From: an uncultured Candidatus Saccharibacteria bacterium
GTDB taxonomy: Bacteria > Patescibacteriota > Minisyncoccia > Phycocordibacterales > UBA918
Direction: 5' to 3'
Length of the DNA stretch: 64,000 nt
NCBI GenBank assembly: GCA_964425625.1
Contig: CAYRMI010000001.1
Span: 866 to 64,865 of the forward strand
Shown here: positions 18,740 to 40,559 of the stretch, in pieces
Position numbering within the stretch: position 1 is the first letter of the stretch
How the letters are laid out: each line of letters opens with the position of its first letter
Made by a program: the position numbers and the translations under genes
Notes under the pieces: generated by a model
What the model saw: only the letters and a program-made list of their open reading frames with translations
Database searches by the model: none
What the model was told of the DNA's origin: nothing

Positions 18740-21121
18740 TTAATCCCCTACTATTAAGTTAAGAATTCGACCCGGCACGTAGATTACTTTTTTTATATCT
18801 GTAGTGGTGGCATATCTAATAATATCCTTATTTTCTAAGGCTATTTTAATCACATCCTCCTCTGCTGCCGTTGGACTTATGGTGATAGTTGCGCGTAATT
18901 TTCCGTTGATTTGCACGCCCACAGTTACCATTTCATTAACCAGGAGTTTGGGGTCTGCGACTGGGAAACTGGCTAGATGAATTGAAGCTTCATGACCTAA
19001 ATTTGACCATATTTCCTCCGTCAAATGTGGAGCAAACGGAGCTAACAGGCGAGTAAACAGCTCATAAGACGAAACTGAAAGACCGTACTTTTCAGCATGA
19101 TTCACAAATATCATCATGGCACTAATAGCGGTATTAAATTTAAAGGTCAATATATCCTCACCCACTTTGGCAATGGTCTTATGCAAGAGGGCTTCAGTAT
19201 CTTTGGGATCGGTTTCAGTCAGGTGGTCACCCAAACCATATACTCGCTCAAGAAAACGTCTAACTCCGGCTATACCGCCAAGATCAAATGGGTAGTTACT
19301 GCCTTCATATGGTCCCATAAAGGCCAAATACATCTTCACCGTATCAGCGCCGACGGTCTTTACATGATCATCGGGATCAATCACATTACCCTTACTTTTA
19401 CTCATCTTATTGCCATCCGGGCCGAGGATGAGGCCACGGTTGATGCGTCTTTTGTATGGCTCGCTCTCAGTCACTAAACCTAAGTCCAAGAGAGCTTTTT
19501 GCCAAAAACGCGAATAGAGTAAGTGCATAGTGGTATGCTCGGCCCCACCAAAGTAGATATCAATTGGCATCCAATCCGTCTGCTTTTTGAGGGAGGCTAA
19601 GCCTCCCTCATTATGATTGTCTAAATAGCGCAGGAAGTACCATGAGGAATCCACAAAGGTATCCATCGTTTCTACTTCAGGAGTCCAACCCTGGCCAAAA
19701 ATCTCTTCCGTGCGCTTTTTTAGCGCTTCGCTTTTAGCTAGTGGTGCAATACCAGTCGGCTTGAAATCAACATCTTCAGGTAAAAGCCATGGTAGATGTT
19801 CCTCTGGCACAGCGTGTGCTTTCCCTTCCGGGTCATAGACAATCGGAATTGGTACGCCCCAGTAGCGTTGGCGTCCAATTGACCAGTCGCGCAGACGGTA
19901 AGTTGAGGTCATCTTCCCGCCCACTTTTTTCACAATGGCTTCTTTCGCTTCTTCGGAGTCCATGCCATTAAACTCCCCGGAGTTAATTAGTACCCCCGCG
20001 TTCGCAAAAGGTATTGGATTTTCGCCATTGATTACTTGCTTTACTTTTAGATTAAATTTCTCCGCGAAAGCAAAGTCTCGTTCATCATGCGCTGGCACGG
20101 CCATAATGGCGCCTGTGCCGTAGCTGCCAAGCACGTAGTCTGAGATGTAGACTGGGATCTTCTCGCCACTAGCTGGATTGGTGGCAGTTATTCCCTCGAG
20201 TTTTACCCCCGTCTTCTCCTTAGTGTTATCCAAGCGATCTTGATCATCCTTCTGTTTGGCTTTGGTAATGTAATCGGCCACCTCATTCCAGTTTGCTATA
20301 TGAGTCTCACTCTCACCCACTAATGGGTGTTCTGGCGCCAACACCAAATAAGTCGCTCCGTAAAGAGTGTCTGGTCTCGTCGTAAAAACCTTAACCCTTC
20401 GTTTAACCGAAAGTTCAAAGTCTATCTCTGCGCCACGGCTACGGCCAATCCACTGTCTTTGCGCTTCTTTGATATGTTCGGGCCAATCAAGGGCGTCGAG
20501 GTCATCGATTAATCTATCCGCATACTTGGTGATCCGGAGCATCCATTGAGGCATTTCGCGCTTTTCTATGACATCACCAGAGCGTTCACAGGTGCCATTG
20601 GCGAGCACTTGCTCGTTAGCGATGACCGTATTGCAACCCGGACACCAATTGACTGTGCCCTTGCCTCGATAAGCCACGCCATTCTCAAAAAACTTGGTGA
20701 ACATGGACTGGGTCCATTTGTAGTATTCCGGATCAGTTGAGTTACAAGTCTTGTCCCAGGAGAAAGAGTTACCCATGCTCGTAAGCTGGTCTTTCATGTA
20801 GGCGATGTTGTCATTGGTCCAAGCTTTGGGGTCCAGGTTGCGTTTGATAGCGGCGTTCTCGGCCGGTAGACCAAAGGCATCAAAGCCCATGGGGTAGAGG
20901 ACTTGCTTACCCAGCATGCGCTGGTAGCGGACGTAGATATCAGGGACAGCAAAAGCATACCAGTGACCGATGTGGAGATTGCCAGAGGGGTAAGGCCACT
21001 CCACCAGCACGTATTCTTTCTCTTTGCTTAAATCGCGCTCGCCGACATTATAGAGACCACTTTCCTGCCATTTGGCTTGCCACTTCTTTTCAATCTCTGC
21101 GCTATCAAACTTTTTATGCAT
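18740..21121 (-). CDS. leuS: leucine--tRNA ligase
   Basis: 793 aa; class I HIGH (HIGHWYAF) and KMSKS (KMSKSKGNVIDP) motifs, LeuRS-type editing domain (CP1) blocks. Confidence 0.9.
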   Translation of the reverse strand: MHKKFDSAEIEKKWQAKWQESGLYNVGERDLSKEKEYVLVEWPYPSGNLHIGHWYAFAVPDIYVRYQRMLGKQVLYPMGFDAFGLPAENAAIKRNLDPKAWTNDNIAYMKDQLTSMGNSFSWDKTCNSTDPEYYKWTQSMFTKFFENGVAYRGKGTVNWCPGCNTVIANEQVLANGTCERSGDVIEKREMPQWMLRITKYADRLIDDLDALDWPEHIKEAQRQWIGRSRGAEIDFELSVKRRVKVFTTRPDTLYGATYLVLAPEHPLVGESETHIANWNEVADYITKAKQKDDQDRLDNTKEKTGVKLEGITATNPASGEKIPVYISDYVLGSYGTGAIMAVPAHDERDFAFAEKFNLKVKQVINGENPIPFANAGVLINSGEFNGMDSEEAKEAIVKKVGGKMTSTYRLRDWSIGRQRYWGVPIPIVYDPEGKAHAVPEEHLPWLLPEDVDFKPTGIAPLAKSEALKKRTEEIFGQGWTPEVETMDTFVDSSWYFLRYLDNHNEGGLASLKKQTDWMPIDIYFGGAEHTTMHLLYSRFWQKALLDLGLVTESEPYKRRINRGLILGPDGNKMSKSKGNVIDPDDHVKTVGADTVKMYLAFMGPYEGSNYPFDLGGIAGVRRFLERVYGLGDHLTETDPKDTEALLHKTIAKVGEDILTFKFNTAISAMMIFVNHAEKYGLSVSSYELFTRLLAPFAPHLTEEIWSNLGHEASIHLASFPVADPKLLVNEMVTVGVQINGKLRATITISPTAAEEDVIKIALENKDIIRYATTTDIKKVIYVPGRILNLIVGD

Positions 21122-21185
21122 AACAAACCCCGCTTAACGAATAAGTAGTAGTTTAGTATGCCACGAGTTTGCGAGGATGTAAAAA

Positions 21186-21806
21186 CTACCTGTAAAGTAC
21201 CTGTACTAGGTCTACTGGCGAATTCAAGATATTCTCGTTAGGGAGTTCTGTCAGTAATTGTTCTTTCGAGCAGTAACCCCAAGTCACTCCAATTAGTTTA
21301 TGGGGATTAATGATGTCCTTAAGTTCGTATATATCTGCTAGTGTGTCTGTAAAGTAATACGCTTCTGAAAATTCGATCCCCCAGTCTTGGCAGATTTGTT
21401 CAACCTTCTCCTCTTTTGAGTGGTGGTCTTCGAAAGCTAGTATATGCGTAAAGTCTAACCCCATTTTTTCTATAGCTGGCTTAACGTAGTTTTGAGAACC
21501 GCTTGAAACAACTGCCATCTTTGTGTTTGTTAGCCTCTTAATTTGCAAAATAAACTCATTAAACAAAGGGAATCCCTTTTCATGGACCAATTTTCCTCCG
21601 TTGGATATACGCTCATGTAGTACGGCTAGGTCTGCCTGGGTCAAGGTGTGATTACGAGCGTGATGAGGCTTTTGGATAGCGTAAACATTCAAATCTATAA
21701 AAGCACCTACTTTCCCATTTTGTTTGTTTTGCTGATTTTGCACTTCCGTCCAGACATTATAAGTATCACCCAAAACACCATCGAAATCAAAAATTAGGAA
21801 ATGCAT
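21186..21806 (-). CDS. HAD-superfamily hydrolase
   Basis: 206 aa; motif I FDFDGVL at the N-terminus. Confidence 0.6.
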   Translation of the reverse strand: MHFLIFDFDGVLGDTYNVWTEVQNQQNKQNGKVGAFIDLNVYAIQKPHHARNHTLTQADLAVLHERISNGGKLVHEKGFPLFNEFILQIKRLTNTKMAVVSSGSQNYVKPAIEKMGLDFTHILAFEDHHSKEEKVEQICQDWGIEFSEAYYFTDTLADIYELKDIINPHKLIGVTWGYCSKEQLLTELPNENILNSPVDLVQVLYR

Positions 21807-21817
21807 TTAATATGAAT

Positions 21818-22753
21818 TTAACGAATTGGTGCGACGGCTGGCTTCTTGAAGGCTTCGAGGTCAACTACTCTTTCAAAGCAGTAATTTCCAGCGCTATGTG
21901 ACCAATTGTACCCGCCTTTGATTGGCTGACCAAACTCGTCATATTCTATTTGTGTTAGAAATTCATCTTCACCACTAGCTTCGGCAAAAGTAGCACAGAG
22001 ACGGAAACCTTTATCAGTCAGCTCATAAGTGTATGGTTCGCGTTCTTCGGCTGCTACTGGTAATGGGCCAGCCGCTGGTAATTCTTCTAGACTCTTAGGC
22101 AACTCTCCGTTTAGGGTGACGTAATTTTCAATTTGGTACTGGATCGCTTGCAGATCTGTTACTTGTTGATCATCTAAGCGCATTTGGCGTACCTGGTCTG
22201 GAGTCTCAATGTTCATAAAGCCATAAACTAAAGAAGTCATAACCACAACAGCCATGCCTATACCGTAGGTAATAGATTTTTTCTCCTCTTTTAACCAAAA
22301 ACCTCTAGCATCTAACAAATAATAATAAAAAGCTGAACCAACGACGATAAGTACAGCTAATGCTTTAAGAATAAAACGTACGGTCAACTCACCTTCTAGA
22401 AAAGCCATCACGACAGCTACCAAATCACCCAAGAGGGCTGCCCCACCAATGAGGAGAGACAAATAGATTAACCACTTCGTTAATCCTAGATAAGCACTAC
22501 TAGTGTCTTGTCTACGGGCGAGATTAACTAAACGTGTGAGGACTATGTAAGTAGGGAAAAAGACCACTACCATCGCAATACCCAACCGGATGCTGGTGCT
22601 AGCACTCTCAATGGCCCAGTAACCTTCGGCAGCATCAGGAAACTTTAAGTTGATTAGACCAAAAATTAAAACGATTAAAAATGATACTGATAAGTAAAGA
22701 CTAATAAGTGAACCTAACTGAAGCACGAAGTGCTTGGAGGTATGATTTTCCAT
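21818..22753 (-). CDS. hypothetical integral membrane protein
   Basis: 311 aa; 5-6 predicted TM helices then a soluble C-terminal domain. Confidence 0.4.
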   Translation of the reverse strand: MENHTSKHFVLQLGSLISLYLSVSFLIVLIFGLINLKFPDAAEGYWAIESASTSIRLGIAMVVVFFPTYIVLTRLVNLARRQDTSSAYLGLTKWLIYLSLLIGGAALLGDLVAVVMAFLEGELTVRFILKALAVLIVVGSAFYYYLLDARGFWLKEEKKSITYGIGMAVVVMTSLVYGFMNIETPDQVRQMRLDDQQVTDLQAIQYQIENYVTLNGELPKSLEELPAAGPLPVAAEEREPYTYELTDKGFRLCATFAEASGEDEFLTQIEYDEFGQPIKGGYNWSHSAGNYCFERVVDLEAFKKPAVAPIR

Positions 22754-22789
22754 ATACTAATATTATACGCTTGTTTTTGGGGAAAAGTA

Positions 22790-22827
22790 ACAAAATGAAA
22801 AGCCACTTCAATTGCTCGAAGTGGCCT
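22790..22827 (-). terminator. intrinsic terminator downstream of YeaD-like paralog 1
   Basis: GCCACTTC-AATTGCTC-GAAGTGGC followed by a U-rich run on the minus strand. Confidence 0.5.
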
Positions 22828-22853
22828 TGCTGGTGCTCAAGTGGTGGGCGTAA

Positions 22854-23591
22854 CTAGTACGCAGGAACAAATTCAATCCGACACCAGGCCTTAGACCATG
22901 AGTTTGGCCTCAAGCTGATGTCCTTTCTTATTCCAGCCTTCGGCTTGAGGCAGATGTATTTATCTGGTTGGTCTGACCAGACAACGACCTGGTCATAACC
23001 TTGTAACCGGAGCCAGTAGATACCCTGATCTACTTGCAGATACACCAGACTTTCTTTGAGATCAAAAATCCGCTCCGTGTTAACCTCGGTACCGCTATCA
23101 ATTAAGACCTGACCTCGCTCATAGACCGACCATTTCTTCCCTGTCGTTGGGAAATATGACTGTAGTCCGTAAGCTAAAGGCATGGGCGTAACGGCCCGGC
23201 ACCTTTCATTTCTAGAGATCTTGAACTGATAGTCCAAGGCATGACCATTGGGAGCGAGATTGATTCTGCTGTGAAGCCTGAAACTCCACTGATAGGCTTC
23301 ACGCGCCTCAATGTCCATTTCAAAAGATCGATATCGGCTGTTGCCTTCATGGTCAGATATCACCGGGTAGAGTCGACTAAGTCCACGAATGATGCCGTAG
23401 TTGGGCAACTTCACTCCCCGCCAAGCTGGTGTTTGTGCTACTTCACCAGAAATCGGTGCGTCAAGGTAGAGTCCACCTGGCAATCTTCCTTCCGGCATCC
23501 CGAAAGCGGGGTGAAGTAATTTTCTGCCACCTGGGTCTGTCCAAGAGAGCACGTTCCCGACATGGTCAGTGACGAATTTGGGCAAGGGCAT
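22854..23591 (-). CDS. aldose 1-epimerase-family protein, glucose-6-phosphate 1-epimerase (YeaD)-like, paralog 1
   Basis: 245 aa; YeaD-like signature ..LPGGLYLDAPISGE......LPNYGIIRGL..W compared with IRGG.P.C.P.FG....LP.HGFAR..W; GC visibly higher than flanks. Confidence 0.45.
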   Translation of the reverse strand: MPLPKFVTDHVGNVLSWTDPGGRKLLHPAFGMPEGRLPGGLYLDAPISGEVAQTPAWRGVKLPNYGIIRGLSRLYPVISDHEGNSRYRSFEMDIEAREAYQWSFRLHSRINLAPNGHALDYQFKISRNERCRAVTPMPLAYGLQSYFPTTGKKWSVYERGQVLIDSGTEVNTERIFDLKESLVYLQVDQGIYWLRLQGYDQVVVWSDQPDKYICLKPKAGIRKDISLRPNSWSKAWCRIEFVPAY

Positions 23592-23718
23592 ACATACTCC
23601 TGGGTTGGTTTTGGATCACGAATAGAATTCAGAACGAAATTCCGTTTTGATATTGCGGGTAATTGTCTTTCTTGTCAATCTAAACGCAGGTCATTTAATT
23701 GTCCTTCTTACAAAAGGA

Positions 23719-23748
23719 AGACCCACAGGACTGATGTCCTGTGGGTCT
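23719..23748. terminator. bidirectional terminator between the two YeaD-like paralogs
   Basis: AGACCCACAGGAC-TGAT-GTCCTGTGGGTCT, 13-bp perfect stem with an A-tract on one side and a T-tract on the other. Confidence 0.6.
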
Positions 23749-23756
23749 CTTTGCCT

Positions 23757-24494
23757 TTACCCTTGGTAATAAGGATCAATGATGTACGTAATATTACACG
23801 ACCCACAGCGTGACTCCCCTGGAGCGAGCAGTACCTCTGCACCATTTCCTAGAGTCGGTTCAACGCACAGGTATTGCGAAGGATCATCTGTCCAGATGTT
23901 CATCTGGTCATAACCGGAGGTATTCATCACAATTACACCACCGTCGACCGCAAATGTCGTGCTCCGGCCATCAAGTCCAAATTGTTGTGCCGAAGACAGA
24001 TCGTCTGTCGTTGTGACCTTTGTTTCTCGACCATACTTCACTACGGTCTCCTTCCTTTCATAGGTAGCAAAATACGGACATAAACCAAACATCAAAGGCA
24101 TCGGTCTAGGATTTGTACAGTTTACCTGTCTCGTTACTTCGATTCTGTGTGCCAGATGAAGACTATCCTTTCCTTCAACAATAGAGATCTGAACGATATA
24201 TCGCCAGGGAAATATCGGCGTCGGTTGCGAAAACGGAAACGAGTAAATAAAGCCTTTGTGGGTATTCTGACACCAAACCGGCTCGACCGAACTCAGAGAG
24301 CGAACAGTGCCGTGTCGAGGCAGGATAACCCCCTCCCACGCTTTCGTCTGTGGCACTTCTCCAAAGACTGGCGCTGCCACAAAAGCTCCGCCGCGAATTT
24401 TTTTATTCTTGTTTATGGTCTGTGGAAAGAACACATCATGACCGCAATCAGTACGCCAAGCTCCGATGGTGCCAGGATGATTAAGTCTTAGCAT
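23757..24494 (-). CDS. aldose 1-epimerase-family protein, YeaD-like, paralog 2
   Basis: 245 aa, same length as paralog 1 and alignable with it (KIRGGAFVAAPVFGEVPQTKAWEGVILPRHGTVRSL vs RLPGGLYLDAPISGEVAQTPAWRGVKLPNYGIIRGL). Confidence 0.45.
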   Translation of the reverse strand: MLRLNHPGTIGAWRTDCGHDVFFPQTINKNKKIRGGAFVAAPVFGEVPQTKAWEGVILPRHGTVRSLSSVEPVWCQNTHKGFIYSFPFSQPTPIFPWRYIVQISIVEGKDSLHLAHRIEVTRQVNCTNPRPMPLMFGLCPYFATYERKETVVKYGRETKVTTTDDLSSAQQFGLDGRSTTFAVDGGVIVMNTSGYDQMNIWTDDPSQYLCVEPTLGNGAEVLLAPGESRCGSCNITYIIDPYYQG

Positions 24495-24616
24495 CTATTT
24501 CTCCTTGTTTGATTGAAATCTAACTAATGGAAAGAAAATCCTTGACTAGGATGCCATAATCTACAATTTTGTAAATAAATAAGAATTTTTCATTAACTAT
24601 GTCATAATAGACTTCT

Positions 24617-24886
24617 ATGAAATCAGATGATTTGAAAAAAGCGCCAAAGCTGTTTTGTGAAAGCGTGAGTGTGGGATTTACGCCGGAGTATTTTGTCATG
24701 GCACTTAGCTCTGGCACCCAGGCCTCAATTTATTCATTTACACCTCAACACCTCAAGCGTTTGCGTGAGTACTTAAGTCACCAAATTAGTGAATATGAAA
24801 AAGAACATGGTGAGATAAAAGTTGAGTCAAACAAGAGTGTAGTCAGCCCAGTACAGAGACTCAGTCCCCCGAGTGAGTTGAGTTAG
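24617..24886 (+). CDS. hypothetical protein
   Basis: 89-aa ORF on the rare plus strand; overlaps a 65-aa minus-strand ORF (24520..24717), so it is unclear which is real, or whether either is. Confidence 0.25.
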   Translation: MKSDDLKKAPKLFCESVSVGFTPEYFVMALSSGTQASIYSFTPQHLKRLREYLSHQISEYEKEHGEIKVESNKSVVSPVQRLSPPSELS

Positions 24887-24989
24887 GTAGGACCTTTATA
24901 ACTTCTCCTATTTTTACATAGGCCTTTCCTATGCAATTTGAACCAACGCAAAGGCCCGACTAGATCGGGCCTTTGGAGAACTGCAGCGA

Positions 24990-25271
24990 CTAGCGAAATC
25001 GCAAGCGTCTCATCGGTGGCATCTGTTGGTTGTGTCGGTTGAGCAGATACTGCAACAAGTCGGCCAAATTTCTGTAAAACTCACCAACATCGGTGCCTAG
25101 TACCTGGATAAATTTTTCCGTAGTTTGCCTACTCTCCACTTCTGCAAAAAAATCATACAAGCACAACCCTTTCACAATACCATCACAGTCTTTACAGCTT
25201 TTTAACTGCCTCGTTAGCTCGAGGCAATTCCAGTAACCTGGATATTCGCGTAAGCTAATATACCTGGCCAT
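24990..25271 (-). CDS. hypothetical protein
   Basis: 93-aa ORF downstream of ychF with a terminator hairpin at 24940..24966. Confidence 0.35.
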   Translation of the reverse strand: MARYISLREYPGYWNCLELTRQLKSCKDCDGIVKGLCLYDFFAEVESRQTTEKFIQVLGTDVGEFYRNLADLLQYLLNRHNQQMPPMRRLRFR

Positions 25272-25368
25272 AAATTACCTCGAAATATGAGTTTAAAGAA
25301 CGCGTTTTTTTCTTTTGTAATTTTGCAACCAATTGCTAGAAAGCACAAATTAACTTAGTTTTCATTAT

Positions 25369-26469
25369 CTACCCCACCATAAATTCAATCACATCGCCAT
25401 CTTTAACGATATAGTCTTTACCTTCGGTACGGAGCTTGCCTTGTTCGCGGGCTTTAGCCAGTGAGCCAGCGGCTACCAGGTCGTCAAAGGTTACTACCTG
25501 AGCGCGAATATATTTCTTTTCAAAATCAGTATGAATGGCAGCGGCAGCTTTTGGTCCGGTTGACCCAATCGGTACAGTCCAGGCATGTGTTTCCTTTTCG
25601 CCCGTCGTAAGGTAACTCATAAGGCCGAGACGGTGATAGCAGGCACGAATCAGGTTCTCAACGCCACTTCCCTGCGCCCCATACTCGCGTCTAAATTCAT
25701 TTTTTTCTTCATCGTTTAAGTCTCGCAGTTCATGCTCCATCCCGGCATCTACTACCACATACTCAGCGCCAGTTCGGTCAAAAAATTCTACCAGTCGAAG
25801 CCAGCGGTCGTCATTGTGTTCGTCTAGGTTGTAGCCATCCGTCATTTTATTGCAGACGTATAAGAATGGCTTCATGGTCAAAAGATGCAGTCCTTTGATG
25901 AGCTTTTGCTCTTCCTCGTTCATAGAAAGTGAGTTGGCAAGTAAGCCACTCTCCAAATGTGGCAATAGTCTACTTAGTAGTCCATGCTCAACTTCAGCTC
26001 CTTTATCACCACGTTTAGCATCACGCTCAACATTACTAAGTCGCTTACTGACTGTCTCAGCATCGGCCAAAATTAATTCTAAGTTGATGACTTCAATATC
26101 TGAAAGTGGGTCAACTCCACCGGTCACATGATGGATGTCTGAATCTTCAAAAATACGCACCACTTCAGCAATCATATCGGTCTCCCGGATGTTGGCCAGG
26201 AATTTATTACCCAGACCCTCTCCCGAAGCAGCTCCCTCTACCAATCCGGCGATATCCACAAATTCTACGATAGCCGGAATAATTTCCTTTGAACCAGAAA
26301 TAGCTGAGAGAGTAGCTAATCGACTATCAGGCACAGCGACCACACCAACCGAAGGGTCGATGGTAGCAAAGGGATAGTTGGCAATCAGCACCTCATTTTT
26401 GGTCAGAGCCGTAAAGAGCGTAGATTTACCTACATTAGGGAGACCGACAATTCCGACTGATAGAGACAT
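25369..26469 (-). CDS. ychF: ribosome-binding ATPase YchF (Obg-family GTPase)
   Basis: 366 aa; G1 GLPNVGKST, NxxD variant and C-terminal TGS domain (KDYIVKDGDVIEF). Confidence 0.85.
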   Translation of the reverse strand: MSLSVGIVGLPNVGKSTLFTALTKNEVLIANYPFATIDPSVGVVAVPDSRLATLSAISGSKEIIPAIVEFVDIAGLVEGAASGEGLGNKFLANIRETDMIAEVVRIFEDSDIHHVTGGVDPLSDIEVINLELILADAETVSKRLSNVERDAKRGDKGAEVEHGLLSRLLPHLESGLLANSLSMNEEEQKLIKGLHLLTMKPFLYVCNKMTDGYNLDEHNDDRWLRLVEFFDRTGAEYVVVDAGMEHELRDLNDEEKNEFRREYGAQGSGVENLIRACYHRLGLMSYLTTGEKETHAWTVPIGSTGPKAAAAIHTDFEKKYIRAQVVTFDDLVAAGSLAKAREQGKLRTEGKDYIVKDGDVIEFMVG

Positions 26470-26557
26470 AAAGAGTTTTGCATAAATAAATAAGAAGAAA
26501 TGCCTTTAAAAAGACACATGTCGGCGAGTGTAACAGAAATACTACATTAATAAAAGC

Positions 26558-26600
26558 TAATCCCCGACTTATATCGGGGATTATCATTTTATTTTTTTGT
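26558..26600. terminator. bidirectional hairpin terminator in the ychF-hpf spacer
   Basis: TAATCCCCGA-CTTATA-TCGGGGATTA followed by TTTTATTTTTTT and preceded by an A-run. Confidence 0.5.
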
Positions 26601-26927
26601 TGGTTTATTACCGCGGTTTTTTACCGCTCCCTCCATGCGACTGGCAGTACGATGGGGTGCTTGTTGATTGCCAGTATGGTGGTTGGGGTGACCAAATTGT
26701 GAACCATGTATGTTTTTCATATATAATATTGTACTCCTACCGGTGCCGATATAGCAACGTCAACAAGTGCGCCAAACTATAGTCAACATAATGGCGATTA
26801 TACTTAATTTATAAAAATGACCTGAGTATAAAAGCCCTTGTCAAAATTAAAATAAGTTGTATTATGCTAATCCCGTACATGAGGGAGGAATCCATCATGC
26901 GGCATGTTCCAAGACGGAGACCAAAAA

Positions 26928-27275
26928 ATGAACCTGACCATAAGTGGTCATCACCTGGAAGTAACCCCCGCGTTGCGGCAGTACGTGGTCGACAAACTCG
27001 ACCGAGTCGAGCGGCACTTCGACCAGATCGTCACCGTCAACGTGCTGTTGACGATCGAAAGGCTCAGGGAAAAGGAACGTCGGCAAAAAGCCGAAGTCAC
27101 CCTGCACATGAAAGGGCGCGATATCTTCGTCGAGCAGGCCCACGAAGACATGTACACCGCCATCGACCAGTTGATGAACATGCTCGACCGCCAGGTGGTC
27201 GAGCACAAGAACAGCAAGCAGGACCCTCGACCCAAGGATTGGAAGTGCCCAAAGCGGGCGCATATCCCAACCTGA
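26928..27275 (+). CDS. hpf: ribosome hibernation-promoting factor (short HPF/YfiA family)
   Basis: MNLTISGHHLEVTPALRQYV..KL.R.ERHFD...V.V.L..E.....AEVTLH..G......HEDMYTAIDQL..L.RQ matches short-form proteobacterial HPF; SD-like GGAGA upstream of the ATG at 26928; strongly GC-rich codons unlike neighbours; own terminator at 27326..27346. Confidence 0.75.
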   Translation: MNLTISGHHLEVTPALRQYVVDKLDRVERHFDQIVTVNVLLTIERLREKERRQKAEVTLHMKGRDIFVEQAHEDMYTAIDQLMNMLDRQVVEHKNSKQDPRPKDWKCPKRAHIPT

Positions 27276-27325
27276 AAACCAAGTCGGTCTAACCATTACC
27301 TGGTAGTGGTTGACCAACCAACCAA

Positions 27326-27346
27326 CCGCAGCTTCGGCTGCGGTTT
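27326..27346 (+). terminator. terminator of the GC-rich hpf cassette
   Basis: CCGCAGC-TTCG-GCTGCGG-TTT, a GC-rich stem with a UUCG-type tetraloop. Confidence 0.55.
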
Positions 27347-27412
27347 AACATATATACTGAATTGTTATTAAATAAAAAAATCAACAAATTTTAGTGCTAT
27401 TATGTTATTTAT

Positions 27413-27844
27413 ATGGATAGCCTACGTTTACTCTTAGTGCAAAACCAGAACAATCTCGACCGGCTACGGGCCCGGGCCAGGTATTTGAAAACCCTTATTT
27501 CTTCCTCCAACTATGATACCCATAAACAGTATGGTCCTTATGCTGAATTTTGGGATGAGTGGTATGAGCAAATGCAAGCAATCTTTACTGATTTAAAATC
27601 AGACATTAGAGCGACTGAGGAATTTATCGCTGAACTGCGAGAATTTATATTTTGTATGGAGACGGAACAAAAACCAGTCCGTGGTTACAAGAAACGACTT
27701 ACTGAAATGAACTCACTTTCTCTTGAAGCAATTGCTTGCCAACATGACATGCTACATATAGCAGACACCCAACTGGCCGAACACAAAGAATTTACCCACA
27801 AGTTACTCTTGGTTGAAGCCATCGACAGCTTAAATGAGGATTAG
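27413..27844 (+). CDS. hypothetical protein (predicted coiled-coil)
   Basis: 143-aa ORF followed by a bidirectional terminator at 27888..27909. Confidence 0.4.
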   Translation: MDSLRLLLVQNQNNLDRLRARARYLKTLISSSNYDTHKQYGPYAEFWDEWYEQMQAIFTDLKSDIRATEEFIAELREFIFCMETEQKPVRGYKKRLTEMNSLSLEAIACQHDMLHIADTQLAEHKEFTHKLLLVEAIDSLNED

Positions 27845-27887
27845 TATAACTTTAACTAAACCCAAGTTAAGTTTCTTTTAAACAACT

Positions 27888-27909
27888 AGACCACCAAAAG
27901 TGGTGGTCT
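27888..27909. terminator. bidirectional terminator between convergent genes 27413..27844 and 27911..28246
   Basis: AGACCACC-AAAAG-GGTGGTCT. Confidence 0.55.
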
Positions 27910-27910
27910 G

Positions 27911-28246
27911 TTAGATTTCAGCGATTGCCTGAATACCTCGGTTTGTAATTTCGAATGCCGGCATAAGGATATCGTATGGCCCTTCTTCAACATATTCCAA
28001 TCTCACCCACTTAGCACCTAAAAAGACATTGAATTTCCGTAATACTTCTGGTTCAAATTCGTTGACCAACTGTTGATATCCTGAGGGATGAACTGGTGGG
28101 TGACGTCTGACCAAGATGGTGGCCATTTCTTTTGGTGTTATAAGAGAGCCATGCTTCCGCATTAGATCAAGAACCTCTTTGGACTTAATTTCGCTTGCCC
28201 TCATTTCTATTCTCCTGTTTGAGAGATTGAATTTTCCAATTATCAT
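27911..28246 (-). CDS. hypothetical protein
   Basis: 111-aa ORF, convergent with the previous gene and sharing its terminator. Confidence 0.4.
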   Translation of the reverse strand: MIIGKFNLSNRRIEMRASEIKSKEVLDLMRKHGSLITPKEMATILVRRHPPVHPSGYQQLVNEFEPEVLRKFNVFLGAKWVRLEYVEEGPYDILMPAFEITNRGIQAIAEI

Positions 28247-28357
28247 TGTACTTCTATACTTATCTTAACAGAAAAGGCTATTTAAGCGATAGTTGAATAA
28301 GTGAAATTGTATAAACTGATATTTTTTATGCCAAATTTAGGGTAGAATAATTAAATC

Positions 28358-29377
28358 ATGCCGTCGTTGTTTCGCTCGCCACTTTCGCTTATTGCTACTA
28401 TTTTAACAGCTACTTTCTGTGTAGCGATAATCATTTTTTCAGTCAACGCCATAAAAGAGGAAACAGTGACGTCTACCCGTACTGATCAAGCTAGCCAAAC
28501 TGAGTCCACAGCACAAAGTTTTCCCTTAAGTGTCAATCCGATAACCAAAAAAATTGAAGAAAATCCTTTGGTTGATTGGTATGTTACACAACACTTATCA
28601 ATAGATACTAAGAAATTTAGACAAAGACGATTTATCGACCGTGTGGTTTCCGAATTAGTTCAATTATCACTCTACCAGCAACTGGCTTCACCTCTTTCCC
28701 GTACTTTAGTTATCTATCCCGGGGAAAGACGCGAGGAAGTAGTAAAACATTTTGGTGATATCTTACGTTGGAGCAATACAGAGAGAGAAGAATTTTCAAA
28801 TCTAATCACTAGTAGCGAGCCGGCTATTAGTGATGGTAAATTCTACCCAGGGAAATACACCCTACCAAAAAACAGCACCCCCGAACAAGTGGCATCATTG
28901 TTGATTAATAAATTTGCTGAAGAGATACTAGCACGCTACGACGAGAGTATAGAAGAAATCGTACCACTGAAGGACACTCTAGTAATCGCTTCACTCTTAG
29001 AGCGAGAGGCATATAATTTCGATGATATGCGCTACATTTCAGGCATCATTTGGAATCGATTATTTATCGACATGCCTTTACAACTAGATGCCACCTTGCA
29101 ATATGCCAAAGGCAACAATCCAAATGAAACAAAATGGTGGCCAAAAGTGCGACCAGTCGATAAATATATCGATTCCCCTTTTAATACCTATGAGGAAAAA
29201 GGCCTACCGCCTTCACCAATAGCCAATCCGTCTCTGGAGGCTGTTGTAGCTGCTCTAAATCCCCGCGCTACAGATTGCTTATTTTATTTTCACGATAGTG
29301 ATGGCAATTTTTACTGCTCAATCAACTACGAAGGACACGTGGCTCTACTCAAGGAGATTTACGGTCAAGGTAGATAG
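28358..29377 (+). CDS. mltG: endolytic murein transglycosylase MltG (YceG-like), second paralog
   Basis: 339 aa; N-terminal TM anchor; YceG blocks (LVIASLLEREA, SPFNTYEEKGLPPSPIANPS, FYCSINYEGH). Confidence 0.75.
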   Translation: MPSLFRSPLSLIATILTATFCVAIIIFSVNAIKEETVTSTRTDQASQTESTAQSFPLSVNPITKKIEENPLVDWYVTQHLSIDTKKFRQRRFIDRVVSELVQLSLYQQLASPLSRTLVIYPGERREEVVKHFGDILRWSNTEREEFSNLITSSEPAISDGKFYPGKYTLPKNSTPEQVASLLINKFAEEILARYDESIEEIVPLKDTLVIASLLEREAYNFDDMRYISGIIWNRLFIDMPLQLDATLQYAKGNNPNETKWWPKVRPVDKYIDSPFNTYEEKGLPPSPIANPSLEAVVAALNPRATDCLFYFHDSDGNFYCSINYEGHVALLKEIYGQGR

Positions 29378-29378
29378 T

Positions 29379-29777
29379 TTACCAATTCAAGTAAGTAACG
29401 GTAAGTTGCAAGACGGTAGCAAAGCTAACCCATAAGAAATATGGAATATTGACGTAGGTTACCCAAGCATAGTGAGGGAAGATAAAATACAAAGCCAGAC
29501 CAAGCGTCACTAAGACCAACAGAATATCAATGGCTGCTAGAAGATTATTTTGCAAACCAAACTGAAGCGGAGTAAAAGCAAAGTTGAAGATGAGGTTGAG
29601 GATAAACGGTACTACTACGATAGGCGGAATAGAGCCTGTCCAGGCTTTGTAAAAAACGTAGCCAAAGCTGATGAAGATGATGAGATAAAGCACACTCCAG
29701 ACTGGTCCAAAAAGCCAGCTAGGTGGTGCCCAAGTCGGTTTGATTAATTCGCTATACCAATTGTACGTGTTATTCAT
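29379..29777 (-). CDS. tspO: TspO/MBR-family protein, N-terminally short (no TM1)
   Basis: Signature KPTWAPPSWLFGPVWSVLY plus four further TM helices. The ORF-track start (29825) lies inside a perfect terminator hairpin, so the start was moved to the internal Met MNNTYNWY (29777). The protein then lacks the first TM helix of canonical TspO. Confidence 0.5.
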   Translation of the reverse strand: MNNTYNWYSELIKPTWAPPSWLFGPVWSVLYLIIFISFGYVFYKAWTGSIPPIVVVPFILNLIFNFAFTPLQFGLQNNLLAAIDILLVLVTLGLALYFIFPHYAWVTYVNIPYFLWVSFATVLQLTVTYLNW

Positions 29778-29808
29778 ATATCTAAAGTATACCACTTTGA
29801 ACAGAGAA

Positions 29809-29866
29809 AAAGGCATGCGGAGCATGCCTTTTTGTTGTGTTTCCGACTAGGTCGGACCGTTTTTTA
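29809..29866. terminator. two adjacent perfect hairpins between tspO and the GC-rich lipoprotein gene
   Basis: AAAAAGGCATGC-GGA-GCATGCCTTTTT (29809..29836), then TCCGAC-TAG-GTCGGA-CCGTTTTTT (29842..29866). The first overlaps the annotated tspO ATG. Confidence 0.55.
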
Positions 29867-30439
29867 TTTCTTCACTTTGGGTATGCACTGTGGCTTGGCC
29901 GTGTCGTATCCCGAGTGAATTAGGAGTCCGGTGTCAGACCAGACTTCAGTCCAGCTTTTGTGGCAGATCATTACACTCTGCGCCTCTGAAGCCAAGGTGC
30001 AGGTGCGCGAAAAAGTCTTACCAGAAGACGACTCCTCCCACTTGCACTCCGCTCCTTTGACTGGGGAGAGAGCTGCTGCTACTTCCTCCGGTCCCGGTGC
30101 TGGATAGCACCAGAACTGCGACCCGTTGCGGGTTGTGGTAGTCACACCATGACCACCTTGGTAACGTGATCTGTAGTATGACTGGTCGCTCGTGCATTCA
30201 CGGCGATCTTTACCTCGTCCAAGAGTGTAGGCCATCCGAGTCGTGCCTTGGTAACTGGAACTTTTGTAGCCCGACCCCTTGGACTGTTCTGATTGGTGCG
30301 ATCCACCGAGAATTTGCTTGTTCTCAGCGAAAGTAGTTCCGCCTATGACCAGGGTCCCTCCGTGCAATTCGGTGGCGCAGCCAGAGAACAGCAGAACCGA
30401 TACCAAACCGACCAGCTGAATCGAAAGACGCGTGTTCAT
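29864..30439 (-). CDS. hypothetical lipoprotein
   Basis: 191 aa; signal peptide with lipobox (LLFSGC), Cys/Gly/Ser-rich mature part; gene is visibly GC-rich and bracketed by perfect palindromic terminators. Confidence 0.5.
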   Translation of the reverse strand: MNTRLSIQLVGLVSVLLFSGCATELHGGTLVIGGTTFAENKQILGGSHQSEQSKGSGYKSSSYQGTTRMAYTLGRGKDRRECTSDQSYYRSRYQGGHGVTTTTRNGSQFWCYPAPGPEEVAAALSPVKGAECKWEESSSGKTFSRTCTLASEAQSVMICHKSWTEVWSDTGLLIHSGYDTAKPQCIPKVKK

Positions 30440-30513
30440 GTATATCTCCTAAATTTGGATGAACGTACTTTTGACACTCAGAAATGAGTATCAGCCAATT
30501 GATATAATAGCAT

Positions 30514-30549
30514 AAAACCCCTTAAAAGTCAATACTTTTAAGGGGTTTT
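30514..30549. terminator. 16-bp perfect palindromic hairpin between the lipoprotein and NAD(P)H dehydrogenase genes
   Basis: AAAACCCCTTAAAAGT-CAAT-ACTTTTAAGGGGTTTT. Confidence 0.6.
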
Positions 30550-30559
30550 ATAAGCTTAT

Positions 30560-31144
30560 TTAGATGGCTTTTTTACCCAATCTTTCCATGTCCTTCAACC
30601 ATTTGCCTCGGGCACTATCGTCTACTTTATCGCACGGGCCCATGAAAGATACTTCTGTTCTAATACCAGCGAACTCCAAGATACCATGCTGGATTTCGTT
30701 CCAATAATCCCCATACTTCCACCACAGCATAAACGGGCTATGGGTACCGGAAAGATTTATCACTCGAGCGGTCTTCCCTTTTAGGTGTTGCTCAATTTTT
30801 TTTGTCTCCTTGTTGAAATTAAAGGCAAACCCAGGCAACCACATCCGATCAAACAGACCTTTTAGTAAAGCTGGCATGGCGCACCACCAGTTTGGGTAAG
30901 CAATAACAATATGATCAGCCACCCTGAATTTTTCTTGTAAATCTAATAGATCTGGTTCGAGGTGTTGAATTTCTTTGTAGCCTTTGTGTAGAATCGGATC
31001 AAACTGTAAGTCACCAAGATTTACTCGCACTACTGTATGTCCAGCGTCTTCTGCTCCAGCCTGATAGTGGTCAAGCAACGTCCCGGTGAAAGTGTCTTTG
31101 TCCGGATGGCCACAGATTAAAAGAACATTTTTAGTTTTTTGCAT
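30560..31144 (-). CDS. flavodoxin-like NAD(P)H dehydrogenase (quinone) family protein
   Basis: 194 aa; N-terminal LLICGHP...TF and overall Flavodoxin_2 / NQO1-MdaB-KefG-like pattern. Confidence 0.55.
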   Translation of the reverse strand: MQKTKNVLLICGHPDKDTFTGTLLDHYQAGAEDAGHTVVRVNLGDLQFDPILHKGYKEIQHLEPDLLDLQEKFRVADHIVIAYPNWWCAMPALLKGLFDRMWLPGFAFNFNKETKKIEQHLKGKTARVINLSGTHSPFMLWWKYGDYWNEIQHGILEFAGIRTEVSFMGPCDKVDDSARGKWLKDMERLGKKAI

Positions 31145-31161
31145 ATACCACTAGTATAACG

Positions 31162-31193
31162 AACAAGCTCGTGAAATATTCACGAGCTTGTTG
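31162..31193. terminator. 14-bp perfect palindromic hairpin
   Basis: AACAAGCTCGTGAA-ATAT-TTCACGAGCTTGTT. Confidence 0.55.
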
Positions 31194-31217
31194 ATTACTT
31201 TGACAAATTTTAATCAG

Positions 31218-38302: not shown

Positions 38303-38311
38303 AAGATTAAT

Positions 38312-38848
38312 GACTCTAGGGAAATGATCGTGACGGTCACCAACGTATTTTATTTCGTTTCTCATAAAATACGTGATGCCACGGGACACACCTCACTCGC
38401 CTACTGCATCGTTCCGGCGGCTCGATTCCCACGCAAGGTGCACAGGCACCTTGCTCTAGAGCCGACAAACAAAAAATGCGCCCGCAGGCGCTCTTTTCTG
38501 TACTCGTGGACTCTAGGGGAATCGGTCACTCTCGTGGATATTTCTGTTCTCCGCCGACTGGCGGATCTTATAATATCTCACTCCATCGACCCGCACTCGC
38601 GTTGGCCCTAAAGGGACCCCGAAACTGTCTTTCGATTCCCCTAGAGTCTCACAAACGGCAACGACCGTGAAGCTATCGGGGGAATCGGTCACTCTCGTGG
38701 ATATTTCTGTTCGCTTCGCTCCAAAAATACCTCACTCGCTCGACCCCCACTCGCGTCGGCCCAGAGGGGCCCCGACGCTTCGGTTCGATTCCCCTAGAGT
38801 CTCACAATGACAAACGACCACGACACTTTGTGTCGTGGTCGGTCATTG
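38312..38848. repeat. GC-rich hairpin-dense repeat locus 1: three diverged units (38312..38433; 38506..38653; 38678..38806), each bounded by inverted partial copies of the tRNA-Ala(GGC) 3' end, plus conserved hairpins and an internal terminator
   Basis: Copies of the tRNA 3' end in tRNA orientation: GTGGACTCTAGGGGAATCG at 38506..38524, shorter copies at 38312..38321 and 38678..38688. Inverted copies: TTCGATTCCCCTAGAGTCTCACA at 38631..38653 and 38784..38806, and GCTCGATTCCC at 38420..38430. The units align to each other and to locus 2. Confidence 0.7.
38469..38498. terminator. bidirectional intrinsic terminator inside repeat locus 1
   Basis: AAAAAA-TGCGCC-CGCA-GGCGCT-CTTTTCT; homologous in position to the terminator at 40452..40486, but with a different stem sequence. 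Confidence 0.55.
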
Positions 38849-38921
38849 TGGACTCTAGGGGAATCGAACCCCTTACCTCTTCCATGCCATGGAAGCGCTC
38901 TACCAAATGAGCTAAGAGCCC
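38849..38921 (-). tRNA. tRNA-Ala (anticodon GGC)
   Basis: Minus strand: GGGCTCT-TA-GCTC-ATTTGGT-AGAGC-G-CTTCC-ATGGCAT-GGAAG-AGGTA-AGGGG-TTCGATT-CCCCT-AGAGTCC-A. All four arms pair; G3:U70 alanine identity pair present; CCA not encoded. Confidence 0.85.
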
Positions 38922-38941
38922 GTCATTAAAACAACTTGAGC

Positions 38942-38968
38942 ATTATACGCACTTTTTATAAAATTCAA
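38942..38968 (-). promoter_or_regulatory. candidate sigma-70-type promoter for tRNA-Ala(GGC)
   Basis: Minus strand TTGAAT-N15-TATAAT ending about 20 nt upstream of the tRNA 5' end. Confidence 0.35.
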
Positions 38969-40006: not shown

Positions 40007-40054
40007 AGTATAACATTTTTTGTTGTCCTGTGTTTTGAACGTGTTTAAAATTTA

Positions 40055-40081
40055 AAGCCACAAAGCTTTGCTTTGTGGCTT
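40055..40081 (-). terminator. 12-bp perfect hairpin between repeat locus 2 and the dehydrogenase gene
   Basis: AAGCCACAAAGC-TTTG-CTTTGTGGCTT; A/T-rich flank on the minus strand. Confidence 0.4.
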
Positions 40082-40090
40082 AACATTACT

Positions 40091-40486
40091 AGAAGATTCG
40101 GTCACGAATCACTAAGTATATTAGTTCTCCGCCAGCTGGCGGATCCGACTCCTAATTTACTAAGTGTTCTTGACCACGACTCGCCGGCCCAAAGGGTCCC
40201 CGGCTCCGTCTTTCGAATCTTCTCTGGTCGCAAAACGGTAAAGACCGTAAACACTTTCGTGTTTACGGTCTTTACCGTTTGTGGACCAGAGAATTCATCC
40301 TGACGGTCACCGACGTACTTTGCTCCAAGTTTTCGCAAAGATACGTGGTGCCGCGGGACACGCCTCGACTGTCGTACTCGCTCCGCTCCGTGCGACCTGT
40401 CTCCGGCGTTCGAATCTTCACGTAAAGTGTCTACACACTTTACTTCTGGTCCAAACAAAAAACCGCTAAAGCGGTTTTTTGTTTTG
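40091..40486. repeat. GC-rich hairpin-dense repeat locus 2: two units homologous to locus 1 (40091..40229 and 40281..40419), a 22-bp perfect hairpin (40233..40280), a short hairpin (40422..40443) and a terminator (40452..40486)
   Basis: Unit ends are inverted partial copies of the adjacent tRNA-Ala(UGC) 3' end (AGAAGATTCG at 40091 and GTGGACCAGAGAA at 40281, against TTCGAATCTTCTCTGGTC at 40212..40229 and TTCGAATCTTC at 40409..40419). Unit bodies align with locus 1 (TTCTCCGCC-AGCT-GGCGGATC vs TTCTCCGCC-GACT-GGCGGATC; TGACGGTCACC-GACGTA...GGGACACGCCTC vs TGACGGTCACC-AACGTA...GGGACACACCTC). Confidence 0.7.
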
Positions 40487-40559
40487 TGGACCAGAGAAGA
40501 TTCGAACTCCCTGCCTCCTCAGTGCAAATGAGGCGCTCTACCAAGTGAGCTACTGGCCC
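40487..40559 (-). tRNA. tRNA-Ala (anticodon UGC)
   Basis: Minus strand: GGGCCAG-TA-GCTC-ACTTGGT-AGAGC-G-CCTCA-TTTGCAC-TGAGG-AGGCA-GGGAG-TTCGAAT-CTTCT-CTGGTCC-A. G3:U70 present; T-stem contains two G:U pairs; CCA not encoded; intrinsic terminator immediately 3' on the minus strand. Confidence 0.8.

Follow-up and report, generated by a model that had tools for sequence, protein, structure and literature searches.

A GC-rich hibernation factor gene of probable Burkholderiales origin, long kept as a single-gene unit in a Paceibacteria-type clade

We analysed a 64-kb stretch of DNA (contig CAYRMI010000001.1, hereafter the window) in which a short GC-rich block carries a single gene, hpf, whose product belongs to the HPF/YfiA (RaiA) family of ribosome hibernation factors and is of the short form. 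Judged by its sequence, the host is a Paceibacteria-type bacterium of the Patescibacteria, or Candidate Phyla Radiation (CPR): the nearest relatives of the ychF gene that flanks the block are 74-81% identical and come from metagenome-assembled genomes (MAGs) labelled Kaiserbacteria, Nomurabacteria, Paceibacterota, Parcubacteria and UBA661. The hpf gene occupies a slot between ychF, whose orthologues are 74-87% identical across Patescibacteria genomes and contigs, and g27413, a CPR-specific gene. It probably derives from Burkholderiales, was gained by the ancestor of one Paceibacteria-type clade and has been kept as a domesticated single-gene unit. The features of the locus are the following.

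25369..26469, minus strand: ychF, native flanking gene at one edge of the slot (Pfam YchF-GTPase_C and MMR_HSR1)
26838..26865, plus strand: AT-rich predicted promoter of the sigma-70 type, TTGTCA-16 nt-TATTAT (10/12 in a promoter scan)
26873..26902, plus strand: predicted 5' leader hairpin, CCGUACAUGA..GGAA..UCAUGCGG (conserved motif, fold predictions)
26916..26920, plus strand: Shine-Dalgarno (SD)-like GGAGA, 8 nt before the ATG (read from the sequence)
26928..27275, plus strand: hpf, 115 aa and stop (Pfam, TIGR, PDB, AlphaFold2)
26928..27228, plus strand: stretch with DNA homology to Burkholderiales hpf, codons 1-100 (blastn)
27229..27272, plus strand: basic, lineage-specific C-terminal tail ..PRPKDWKCPKRAHIPT, predicted to be disordered (comparison of hits, AlphaFold2 confidence)
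27283..27318, plus strand: first hairpin of the 3' untranslated region (UTR; RNA fold)
27324..27345, plus strand: predicted terminator hairpin AACCGCAGC-UUCG-GCUGCGGUU with a 9-bp stem, where the GC-rich block ends (RNA fold)
27413..27844, plus strand: g27413, native CPR-specific gene with its own promoter at the other edge of the slot (no Pfam match)

The product of hpf belongs to the HPF/YfiA family by every sequence and structure criterion that was applied. It exceeds the curated cut-offs of both family models, scoring 85.1 bits against Pfam PF02482 (Ribosomal_S30AE; cut-off 23.7, E = 6e-24) and 99.4 bits against TIGR00741 (cut-off 40.9, E = 1e-28). The best sequence match in the PDB found with phmmer is ribosome-bound RaiA of Psychrobacter urativorans (8rd8_D; E = 2.5e-20, residues 1-97), followed by the HPF proteins of E. 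coli and Vibrio. The AlphaFold2 model, with a mean predicted local distance difference test (pLDDT) score of 76, has strands at residues 2-8, 36-45, 51-61 and 64-71 and helices at residues 14-28 and 75-98, which is the beta-alpha-beta-beta-beta-alpha order of the S30AE fold. When this model was compared with the PDB by Foldseek, the top 38 matches were all hibernation factors (HPF, YfiA or pY), with best target-normalised template modelling (TM) scores of 0.78-0.83. The protein is a short form: in its 115 residues a sole domain match covers residues 4-95, and the last 17 residues or so constitute a low-confidence tail. The original prediction, made from the sequence without database searches, had named a 115-residue short-form HPF here; family hidden Markov models (HMMs), solved structures and the predicted fold all bear this out, and the motifs that it quoted are all contained in the product. 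The scores against the NCBIfam equivalogs of the E. coli type are lower than required, at 75.3 bits for HPF (PRK10470, cut-off 125) and 49.4 bits for RaiA (PRK10324, cut-off 158). Since both fall under their cut-offs and the tail is unrelated to that of RaiA, the protein is placed in the family without being assigned HPF-like or RaiA-like behaviour. A look-up of the exact sequence returned no record, because gene callers had taken a longer open reading frame (ORF).

A cumulative GC walk of the window places the change points at 26871 and 27343, close to the abrupt shifts at about 26865 and 27350 that had first drawn attention to the block. The stretch between them is the most GC-rich of the 64 kb (55% versus 41.5% window-wide), and its boundaries are sharp, the adjoining spacers having 15-20% GC and the one towards g27413 15%. 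The hpf ORF itself reaches 56.6%, a value attained by 0.06% of 348-bp windows, and the window-wide maximum of 56.9% lies inside it. The GC content of its third codon positions (GC3) is 0.78, compared with 0.24-0.58 in the remaining ORFs of at least 100 aa, in line with the earlier remark that G and C dominate its third positions unlike those of neighbouring genes. By segment, GC amounts to 20% in the promoter (26838-26872), 51% in the 5' UTR, 56.5% in the core of the gene, 57% in the tail and 52% in the 3' UTR. Because all four segments of the predicted transcript are GC-rich while the promoter and the spacer before g27413 are AT-rich, the block, as read from the sequence, coincides with that transcript and extends beyond the donor-homologous part. 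Three further GC-rich islands occur in the window (29790-30450, 38319-38954 and 40127-40474), the HPF block being the extreme case. ORFs of at least 60 aa run across the block in five of the six frames; the prediction of ORFs in every frame thus holds for the multiplicity of frames but not for all six. The antisense ORFs were considered as genes and rejected: their length varies from 84 to 193 aa among lineages, and we therefore treat them as by-products of high GC3.

Relatives of the locus, denoted below by contig numbers, were collected by a metagenome scan seeded with g27413 and by context look-ups; a literature search with the sample accessions gave no match. The Logan contig L001 (SRR13355621) is 100% identical to the window over 6,010 bp (25191-31200) and spans both junctions of the block. 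In contigs of other samples, L002, L088, L093 and L096, orthologous hpf cassettes adjoin ychF. The original prediction had offered a chimeric join in the assembly as one of two alternatives and had proposed looking for hpf at this locus in relatives; the gene is present there, and the chimera does not agree with either result. At least eight CPR lineages carry hpf (the window, L002, L087, L088, L089/L090, L093, L096 and L097), and its surroundings vary as follows.

hpf in the ychF/g27413 slot: window, L002, L088 and L093; in L096 hpf adjoins ychF and the contig stops after hpf
hpf upstream of g27413, separated from it by additional genes: L089/L090
hpf in other surroundings: L087 (upstream neighbour enolase) and L097 (between genes for a HAD hydrolase and an AI-2E transporter)
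empty slot: L094 and L095
slot taken by another GC-rich gene (YkuD-like): L007

Homologues of g27413 follow hpf in L002, L087, L088, L089/L090 and L093, and occur without hpf in L007, L092, L094 and L095. In L097 (3001-3342 of a 67-kb contig, JGI 3300045517) and L087 (1810-2160), hpf has a GC3 of 0.72-0.75 and its neighbours 0.35-0.46. The L002 contig (JAHZTO010027407.1 of GCA_020049755.1, compared with window 20869-28604) is a mosaic, 100% identical to the window over 20869-24368 and 27740-28604 and about 80-85% identical (about 84% for the stretch as a whole) over the 3.4 kb between them (ychF dS, the synonymous divergence, about 1.0). This stretch may be a recombination tract from a diverged lineage or an artefact of an assembly that mixed strains.

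The signals around the coding region are conserved among the relatives. The -35 and extended -10 boxes are kept upstream of every CPR copy. The leader hairpin lies between the promoter and the ribosome-binding site, at or adjoining the predicted transcript start, and follows the consensus CCGUACAYG...YRUGCGG. This motif occurs once in the window, where none is expected by chance, and stands upstream of hpf in the CPR contigs L001, L002, L087, L088, L089, L090, L093 and L096; it is not shared by L097, the most divergent CPR copy, and was not found in the Burkholderiales loci L083-L086. Five of six single folds predict the hairpin, and RNAalifold gives 10 pairs, two of them with compensatory changes. 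A match to the motif in L006, inside an AcrB-like gene, was discarded as a chance match. The SD-like GGAGA at 26916-26920, pointed out in the original prediction, has its counterparts in most CPR copies as GGAG 6-12 nt before the canonical ATG, and a similar GAGG adjoins it in L087 and L096.

On the 3' side, the stem-loop with a UUCG loop that had been proposed as the terminator is likewise found, at 27324-27345. The U-tract behind it is short in the window (UUU) and reaches 5-6 U in L087 and L096. The stem of this terminator is common to the window, L002, L087 and L096, and base changes in L002 preserve the stem of the first 3' hairpin. Folded together, the two hairpins give z = -4.8 in the window and z = -6.2 in L002. 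A simple terminator scan does not call the stem in the window; the 3' hairpins behave as a terminator common to the relatives. A scan of the whole window at Rfam gathering thresholds returned two tRNAs only, and a permissive scan of 26480-27420 gave nothing near any family threshold, so that the leader and 3' hairpins fit no described RNA family. We looked for the marks of a mobile cassette and found neither direct or terminal inverted repeats, nor an attC-like site, nor an adjacent integrase or transposase gene. The repeats that bracket the block are short and at chance level, and the neighbours are ychF, a 43-aa ORF, g27413 and yceG; the search did not extend to integrase genes in other parts of the window.

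Searches with the HPF sequence gave 7,911 homologues, the best of which share 70-83% protein identity. Every named best match is from Ideonella, Rubrivivax, Aquabacterium or unclassified Burkholderiales; JOSHI_001 is also among these Burkholderiales matches, and the names of the donor taxa rest on the few database entries that bear names. Codons 1-100, which form the core, are 77-83% identical in protein and 74-79% identical in DNA to hpf of the Rubrivivax/Ideonella/Aquabacterium group, with blastn values of 79% for L086, 74% for L085 (Ideonella livida) and 75% for L083. This homology begins exactly at the ATG (26928) and ends at about codon 100 (27228); neither the leader nor the C-terminal tail nor the 3' UTR shows homology to the three Burkholderiales loci used for comparison. 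The tail stands in place of the donor tail ..DHHHxxPKR.. and has pLDDT values of 56-59. Among the best 120 matches it is shared only by two CPR copies, P0002 and P0011. Between the window and L002 the tail stretch is better conserved than the core, and the tails of the CPR copies form a graded series. The top match, P0001 (204 bits), was set aside as irrelevant: it is an ordinary hpf of the Burkholderiales type that has been partially duplicated in tandem.

The Burkholderiales short HPF/RaiA proteins resemble that of the window in length (113-115 aa), GC3 (about 0.8; 0.81-0.85 in the donors), domain and core. Their genes belong to an hpf-ptsN-hprK cluster and have the GC content typical of their genomes, 68-70%, whereas hpf of the window stands alone in a 41.5% GC genome and has its own promoter, leader hairpin, terminator and tail. 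In a more distantly related Patescibacterium (Loclat_bin-20597), the gene for a short HPF (L022, 1379-1759) looks native, with 41% GC and a GC3 of 0.36. The product of this AT-rich CPR gene is only 23% identical to the window HPF, which argues that the transfer was directed into the CPR lineage; L022 HPF is also a useful comparator for vertically inherited CPR HPF. The original prediction of a foreign gene from a high-GC proteobacterium therefore stands, with Burkholderiales in place of the Gammaproteobacteria it had named, E. coli and Vibrio HPF being 36-42% identical. It had also reasoned that CPR homologues of similar GC would speak against foreign origin. Such homologues exist; since all of them derive from the Burkholderiales type and have diverged from it, the foreign origin is retained but its recency is not.

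Several observations indicate from the sequences that the transfer is old and not, as had been supposed, very recent. A recent islet would be absent from close relatives and have a near-identical donor; of its marks we found only the sharp compositional anomaly, the same slot being filled in L002, L088, L093 and L096 and the best donor DNA being 79% identical. The 100-residue cores of six CPR copies (L096 and L097 left out) are mutually 43-70% identical. An exhaustive HMMER search with L089, the most divergent of these, gave no full-length match above about 52% in 1.84 billion representative proteins; the recognised ones among its best matches are of the Burkholderiales type, and a word-index search with the same copy found only itself. 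Third positions of synonymous codons are 40-66% identical between copies and thus near saturation. The shared CPR-style promoter and leader point the same way, as does a neighbour-joining (NJ) tree of YchF, which groups the window, L002 and L096 with a bootstrap of 0.99 and these with L088, L093 and the empty-slot L094 with one of just 0.73, all our trees being built on short alignments. The non-carriers L003, L004, L006, L011, L007 and L095 fall outside this carrier group, which fits one gain and one later loss.

The hpf gene looks functional by these sequence measures. All CPR copies are intact, and each scores 134-197 bits with a custom HPF HMM. No second HPF turned up in the 64-kb window, which is the part of the genome covered, or in the examined loci of close relatives. 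Between the window and L002, the proportions of nonsynonymous and synonymous differences in hpf are pN = 0.195 and pS = 0.81 (saturated), a pN/pS of about 0.24. The nonsynonymous divergence dN is 0.23 for hpf and 0.028 for ychF; HPF thus changes roughly eightfold faster than YchF, although purifying selection still acts on it.

The composition of the gene does not follow its age. In all eight lineages, hpf has a GC3 of 0.67-0.88, while the neighbours have 0.35-0.55 and the genome backgrounds 41-52% GC. We applied a two-state clock (G/C versus A/T) calibrated on ychF to the comparison of the window with L002. The expected fraction of hpf synonymous sites differing in class is 0.25; 0.45 was observed, the stationary maximum being 0.42. 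From a donor-like start, the time since the split of these two lineages alone should have brought GC3 to 0.65-0.72, and the observed values are 0.81 for the window and 0.67 for L002. This is most simply read as a GC-rich equilibrium specific to the gene, due to selection or another bias on the transcript. Selection on one particular fold of the coding mRNA was tested by shuffling synonymous codons. The lineages disagreed, with z ranging from +1.0 to -4.0; a shared fold is therefore unsupported, and selection, if it acts, would act on general GC-richness. One may go further and suppose that GC-richness is actively maintained across the whole transcript instead of being a fading donor signature. 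The mRNA might then be a nuclease-resistant, long-lived "dormancy" message capped by the 5' hairpin or, more boldly, the Rubrivivax/Ideonella group might be the physical hosts of the Paceibacteria clade and the factor might also act on host ribosomes; we regard this extension as unlikely, though worth bearing in mind.

The explanation that we favour, and consider probable, is a single old acquisition. The ancestor of one Paceibacteria-type clade would have gained the hpf coding core from Burkholderiales of the Rubrivivax/Ideonella/Aquabacterium group; the core would have settled between ychF and the CPR-specific gene, to be retained by the clade since then. It would have gained a CPR-style promoter of the sigma-70 type, the leader hairpin, a ribosome-binding site, the basic tail and the hairpin terminator, and its protein would have changed several times faster than YchF under purifying selection. 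A common origin of the unit is supported by the promoter and SD sequence common to all copies, by the leader common to all but L097 and by the terminator stem common to four lineages. Several points weigh against this explanation. The distances are star-like, every CPR copy being nearer to the Burkholderiales set (53-82%) than to other CPR copies (43-70%). An NJ bootstrap tree of HPF, with about 100 residues and long branches, shows no CPR clade, a test compromised by an unlabelled outgroup that included further CPR copies. L094 lies inside the carrier clade with an empty slot, so that one loss must be assumed. L087 and L097 hold the unit in different genomic neighbourhoods; it would have either moved within CPR genomes or passed between them. 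Finally, amelioration is missing: GC3 remains at 0.67-0.88 everywhere despite randomised synonymous sites, for which a single acquisition offers no explanation.

The star-like distances and the donor-level GC3 would both follow if the hpf core had been imported recurrently, or refreshed repeatedly by recombination, from co-resident Burkholderiales while promoter, leader and 3' end stayed in place. The donor homology that starts exactly at the ATG would also suit this scheme, as would the 80-92% identity of leader and 3' end between the window and L002, where the core is about 67% identical, and the recombination among CPR lineages at the locus to which the L002 mosaic may be due. It remains quite unlikely, because no donor exceeds 79% in DNA or 83% in protein and each CPR copy has private substitutions at sites that are near-invariant in 56 aligned Burkholderiales sequences. 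The L088 and L089 copies are 53-61% identical to any donor, with nothing closer among the representative proteins searched. Recombination between sequences that are about 75% identical would be inefficient, and the graded series of tails fits vertical descent. A very recent single transfer into this genome would account for the sharp boundaries and for a GC3 (0.78) near that of the donors. With hpf at the same site in several diverged relatives, a closest donor DNA 79% identical, a core that differs from every donor at no fewer than 18 of 100 residues, donor near-invariant positions included, and a CPR-specific promoter and leader in place, it is scarcely credible. The compositional anomaly is also the sole support for a Burkholderiales fragment joined into a CPR contig during assembly or binning. 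Such an artefact has practically no chance of being right, given the separately built contig identical across both junctions, the same arrangement in other samples and assemblies, the AT-rich CPR-type promoter attached directly to the block and the confinement of donor homology to codons 1-100.

The rapid amino-acid change of hpf relative to ychF and the new C-terminal tail on a core that is still host-like could alternatively betray a decaying, non-functional relic, or a product put to a new use, such as delivery into the cell of a Burkholderiales host to silence the ribosomes of that host; Patescibacteria are typically epibionts (PMC11665869). We consider this very improbable. Against a relic stand the intact ORFs in all lineages, a pN well below pS and the conserved expression signals. 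Against an exported effector stand the N-terminus MNLTISGHH, which is an ordinary start for the family and, by eye and without a predictor, unlike a signal peptide, and the surroundings of hpf, where no adjoining secretion genes were noticed.

On the explanation by a single old acquisition, the gene would be transcribed from its own promoter into a monocistronic GC-rich mRNA with its 5' end at or adjoining the stable hairpin. By homology with the ribosome-bound structures 8rd8, 6h4n and 4v8i, we infer that the product would occupy the decoding region of the 30S subunit, at the tRNA and mRNA sites, and would silence and protect ribosomes. The cell's own ribosomes would thus be parked inactive during non-growth, for example when it is starved or unattached to a host cell, which would suit an epibiont that alternates between feeding and starvation. 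They would probably be kept as 70S monomers, as with RaiA, since no RMF partner was found, although RMF was not searched for. In E. coli, HPF acts together with RMF to form 100S dimers. E. coli HPF (YhbH; 2rql, 6h4n) and Vibrio cholerae HPF (4hei) are short single-domain proteins like the window HPF and have the same fold (target-normalised TM about 0.82-0.83, root mean square deviation 2.2-2.5 Å), but differ from it in most of their residues, the PRK10470 cut-off not being reached. RaiA/YfiA (1n3g and 4v8i of E. coli, 8rd8 of P. urativorans) resembles it in having a C-terminal extension past the core domain; the sequence of that extension is unrelated, and the PRK10324 score lies under its cut-off. 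The long-form HPF of Firmicutes, Actinobacteria and Thermus (5njt, 5nd8, 6gzq) shares the N-terminal S30AE domain and forms 100S dimers unaided through a C-terminal dimerisation domain, which the window HPF lacks. Native HPF/RaiA of Patescibacteria, as in L022 and Southlakia epibionticum, belongs to the same family and presumably has the same role in a lifestyle of attached growth and starvation; L022 HPF is host-typical in composition, whereas that of the window is a foreign copy and not vertically inherited. On the basis of transposon sequencing, the cultured Patescibacterium S. epibionticum is reported to need RaiA in order to grow (PMC11665869), and cases in which Patescibacteria received translation genes by horizontal transfer have been documented in general (PMC12455944).

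Other features of the slot and of the window were recorded along with the unit. A 43-aa ORF, MKNIHGSQFGHPNHHTGNQQAPHRTASRMEGAVKNRGNKPTKK, lies at 26589-26720 on the minus strand, with a promoter-like site (26757-26728), an SD sequence and a hairpin terminator (26558-26583). It has no Pfam match, is conserved in L002 with a dN/dS of about 0.02 and is absent from L088, L093 and L096, whose ychF-hpf spacer measures 150-180 bp; it is probably a real small protein gene. The product of g27413 has 143 aa and an invariant QYGPYA..W..W motif, and was found here in Patescibacteria-type contigs only (L007, L087-L095); the -10 region of this gene (27393-27407) is 80% alike over 15 nt to that of the hpf promoter (26855-26869). 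In L007, from a MAG labelled UBA661, the slot contains a different GC-rich gene (9304-9822, minus strand; 54-57% GC against a 44% background). Its product resembles YkuD-like L,D-transpeptidases, with a Pfam score of 23.1 bits against a cut-off of 23.4; its homologues are 49-61% identical, one of them in a 54% GC contig that does not look like CPR and whose background composition it shares. Foreign genes may have entered the ychF/g27413 slot repeatedly, though the cases number only two. In another part of the window, two non-coding stretches rich in GC (53-56%), 38303-38848 and 40010-40486, lie directly 3' of tRNA-Ala genes on the minus strand (38848-38921 and 40486-40559). Each contains several partial copies of the 3' end of its own tRNA (T-arm and acceptor) in both orientations, together with repeats of about 150 nt, and neither matches an Rfam family; they may be decayed integration sites or an array of tRNA-fragment repeats. 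Between TspO and flavodoxin-like genes lies a second ORF of odd composition, 191 aa long (29864-30439, minus strand; 54% GC, GC3 0.58). It has no Pfam match, and L089 contains a weak homologue in the corresponding position (39% over about 105 aa).

What is unusual in this member of a known family is the donor-like composition kept over the long term across exactly the predicted transcript, together with a lineage-specific leader and tail. Deviant GC and GC3 commonly serve as a sign of recent transfer; in hpf, a GC3 of 0.67-0.88 persists through saturated synonymous sites and a change of 30-50% of the residues, and composition would badly misdate the event. As a candidate regulatory element, the conserved leader hairpin is small and well defined, and the donor group provides a testable hypothesis on the host bacteria of uncultured Paceibacteria. 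CPR cells have unusual, fast-evolving ribosomes and a life in which attached growth alternates with starvation; a clade that relies on a borrowed and rapidly adapting proteobacterial factor would constitute a natural experiment in the co-adaptation of hibernation factor and ribosome.

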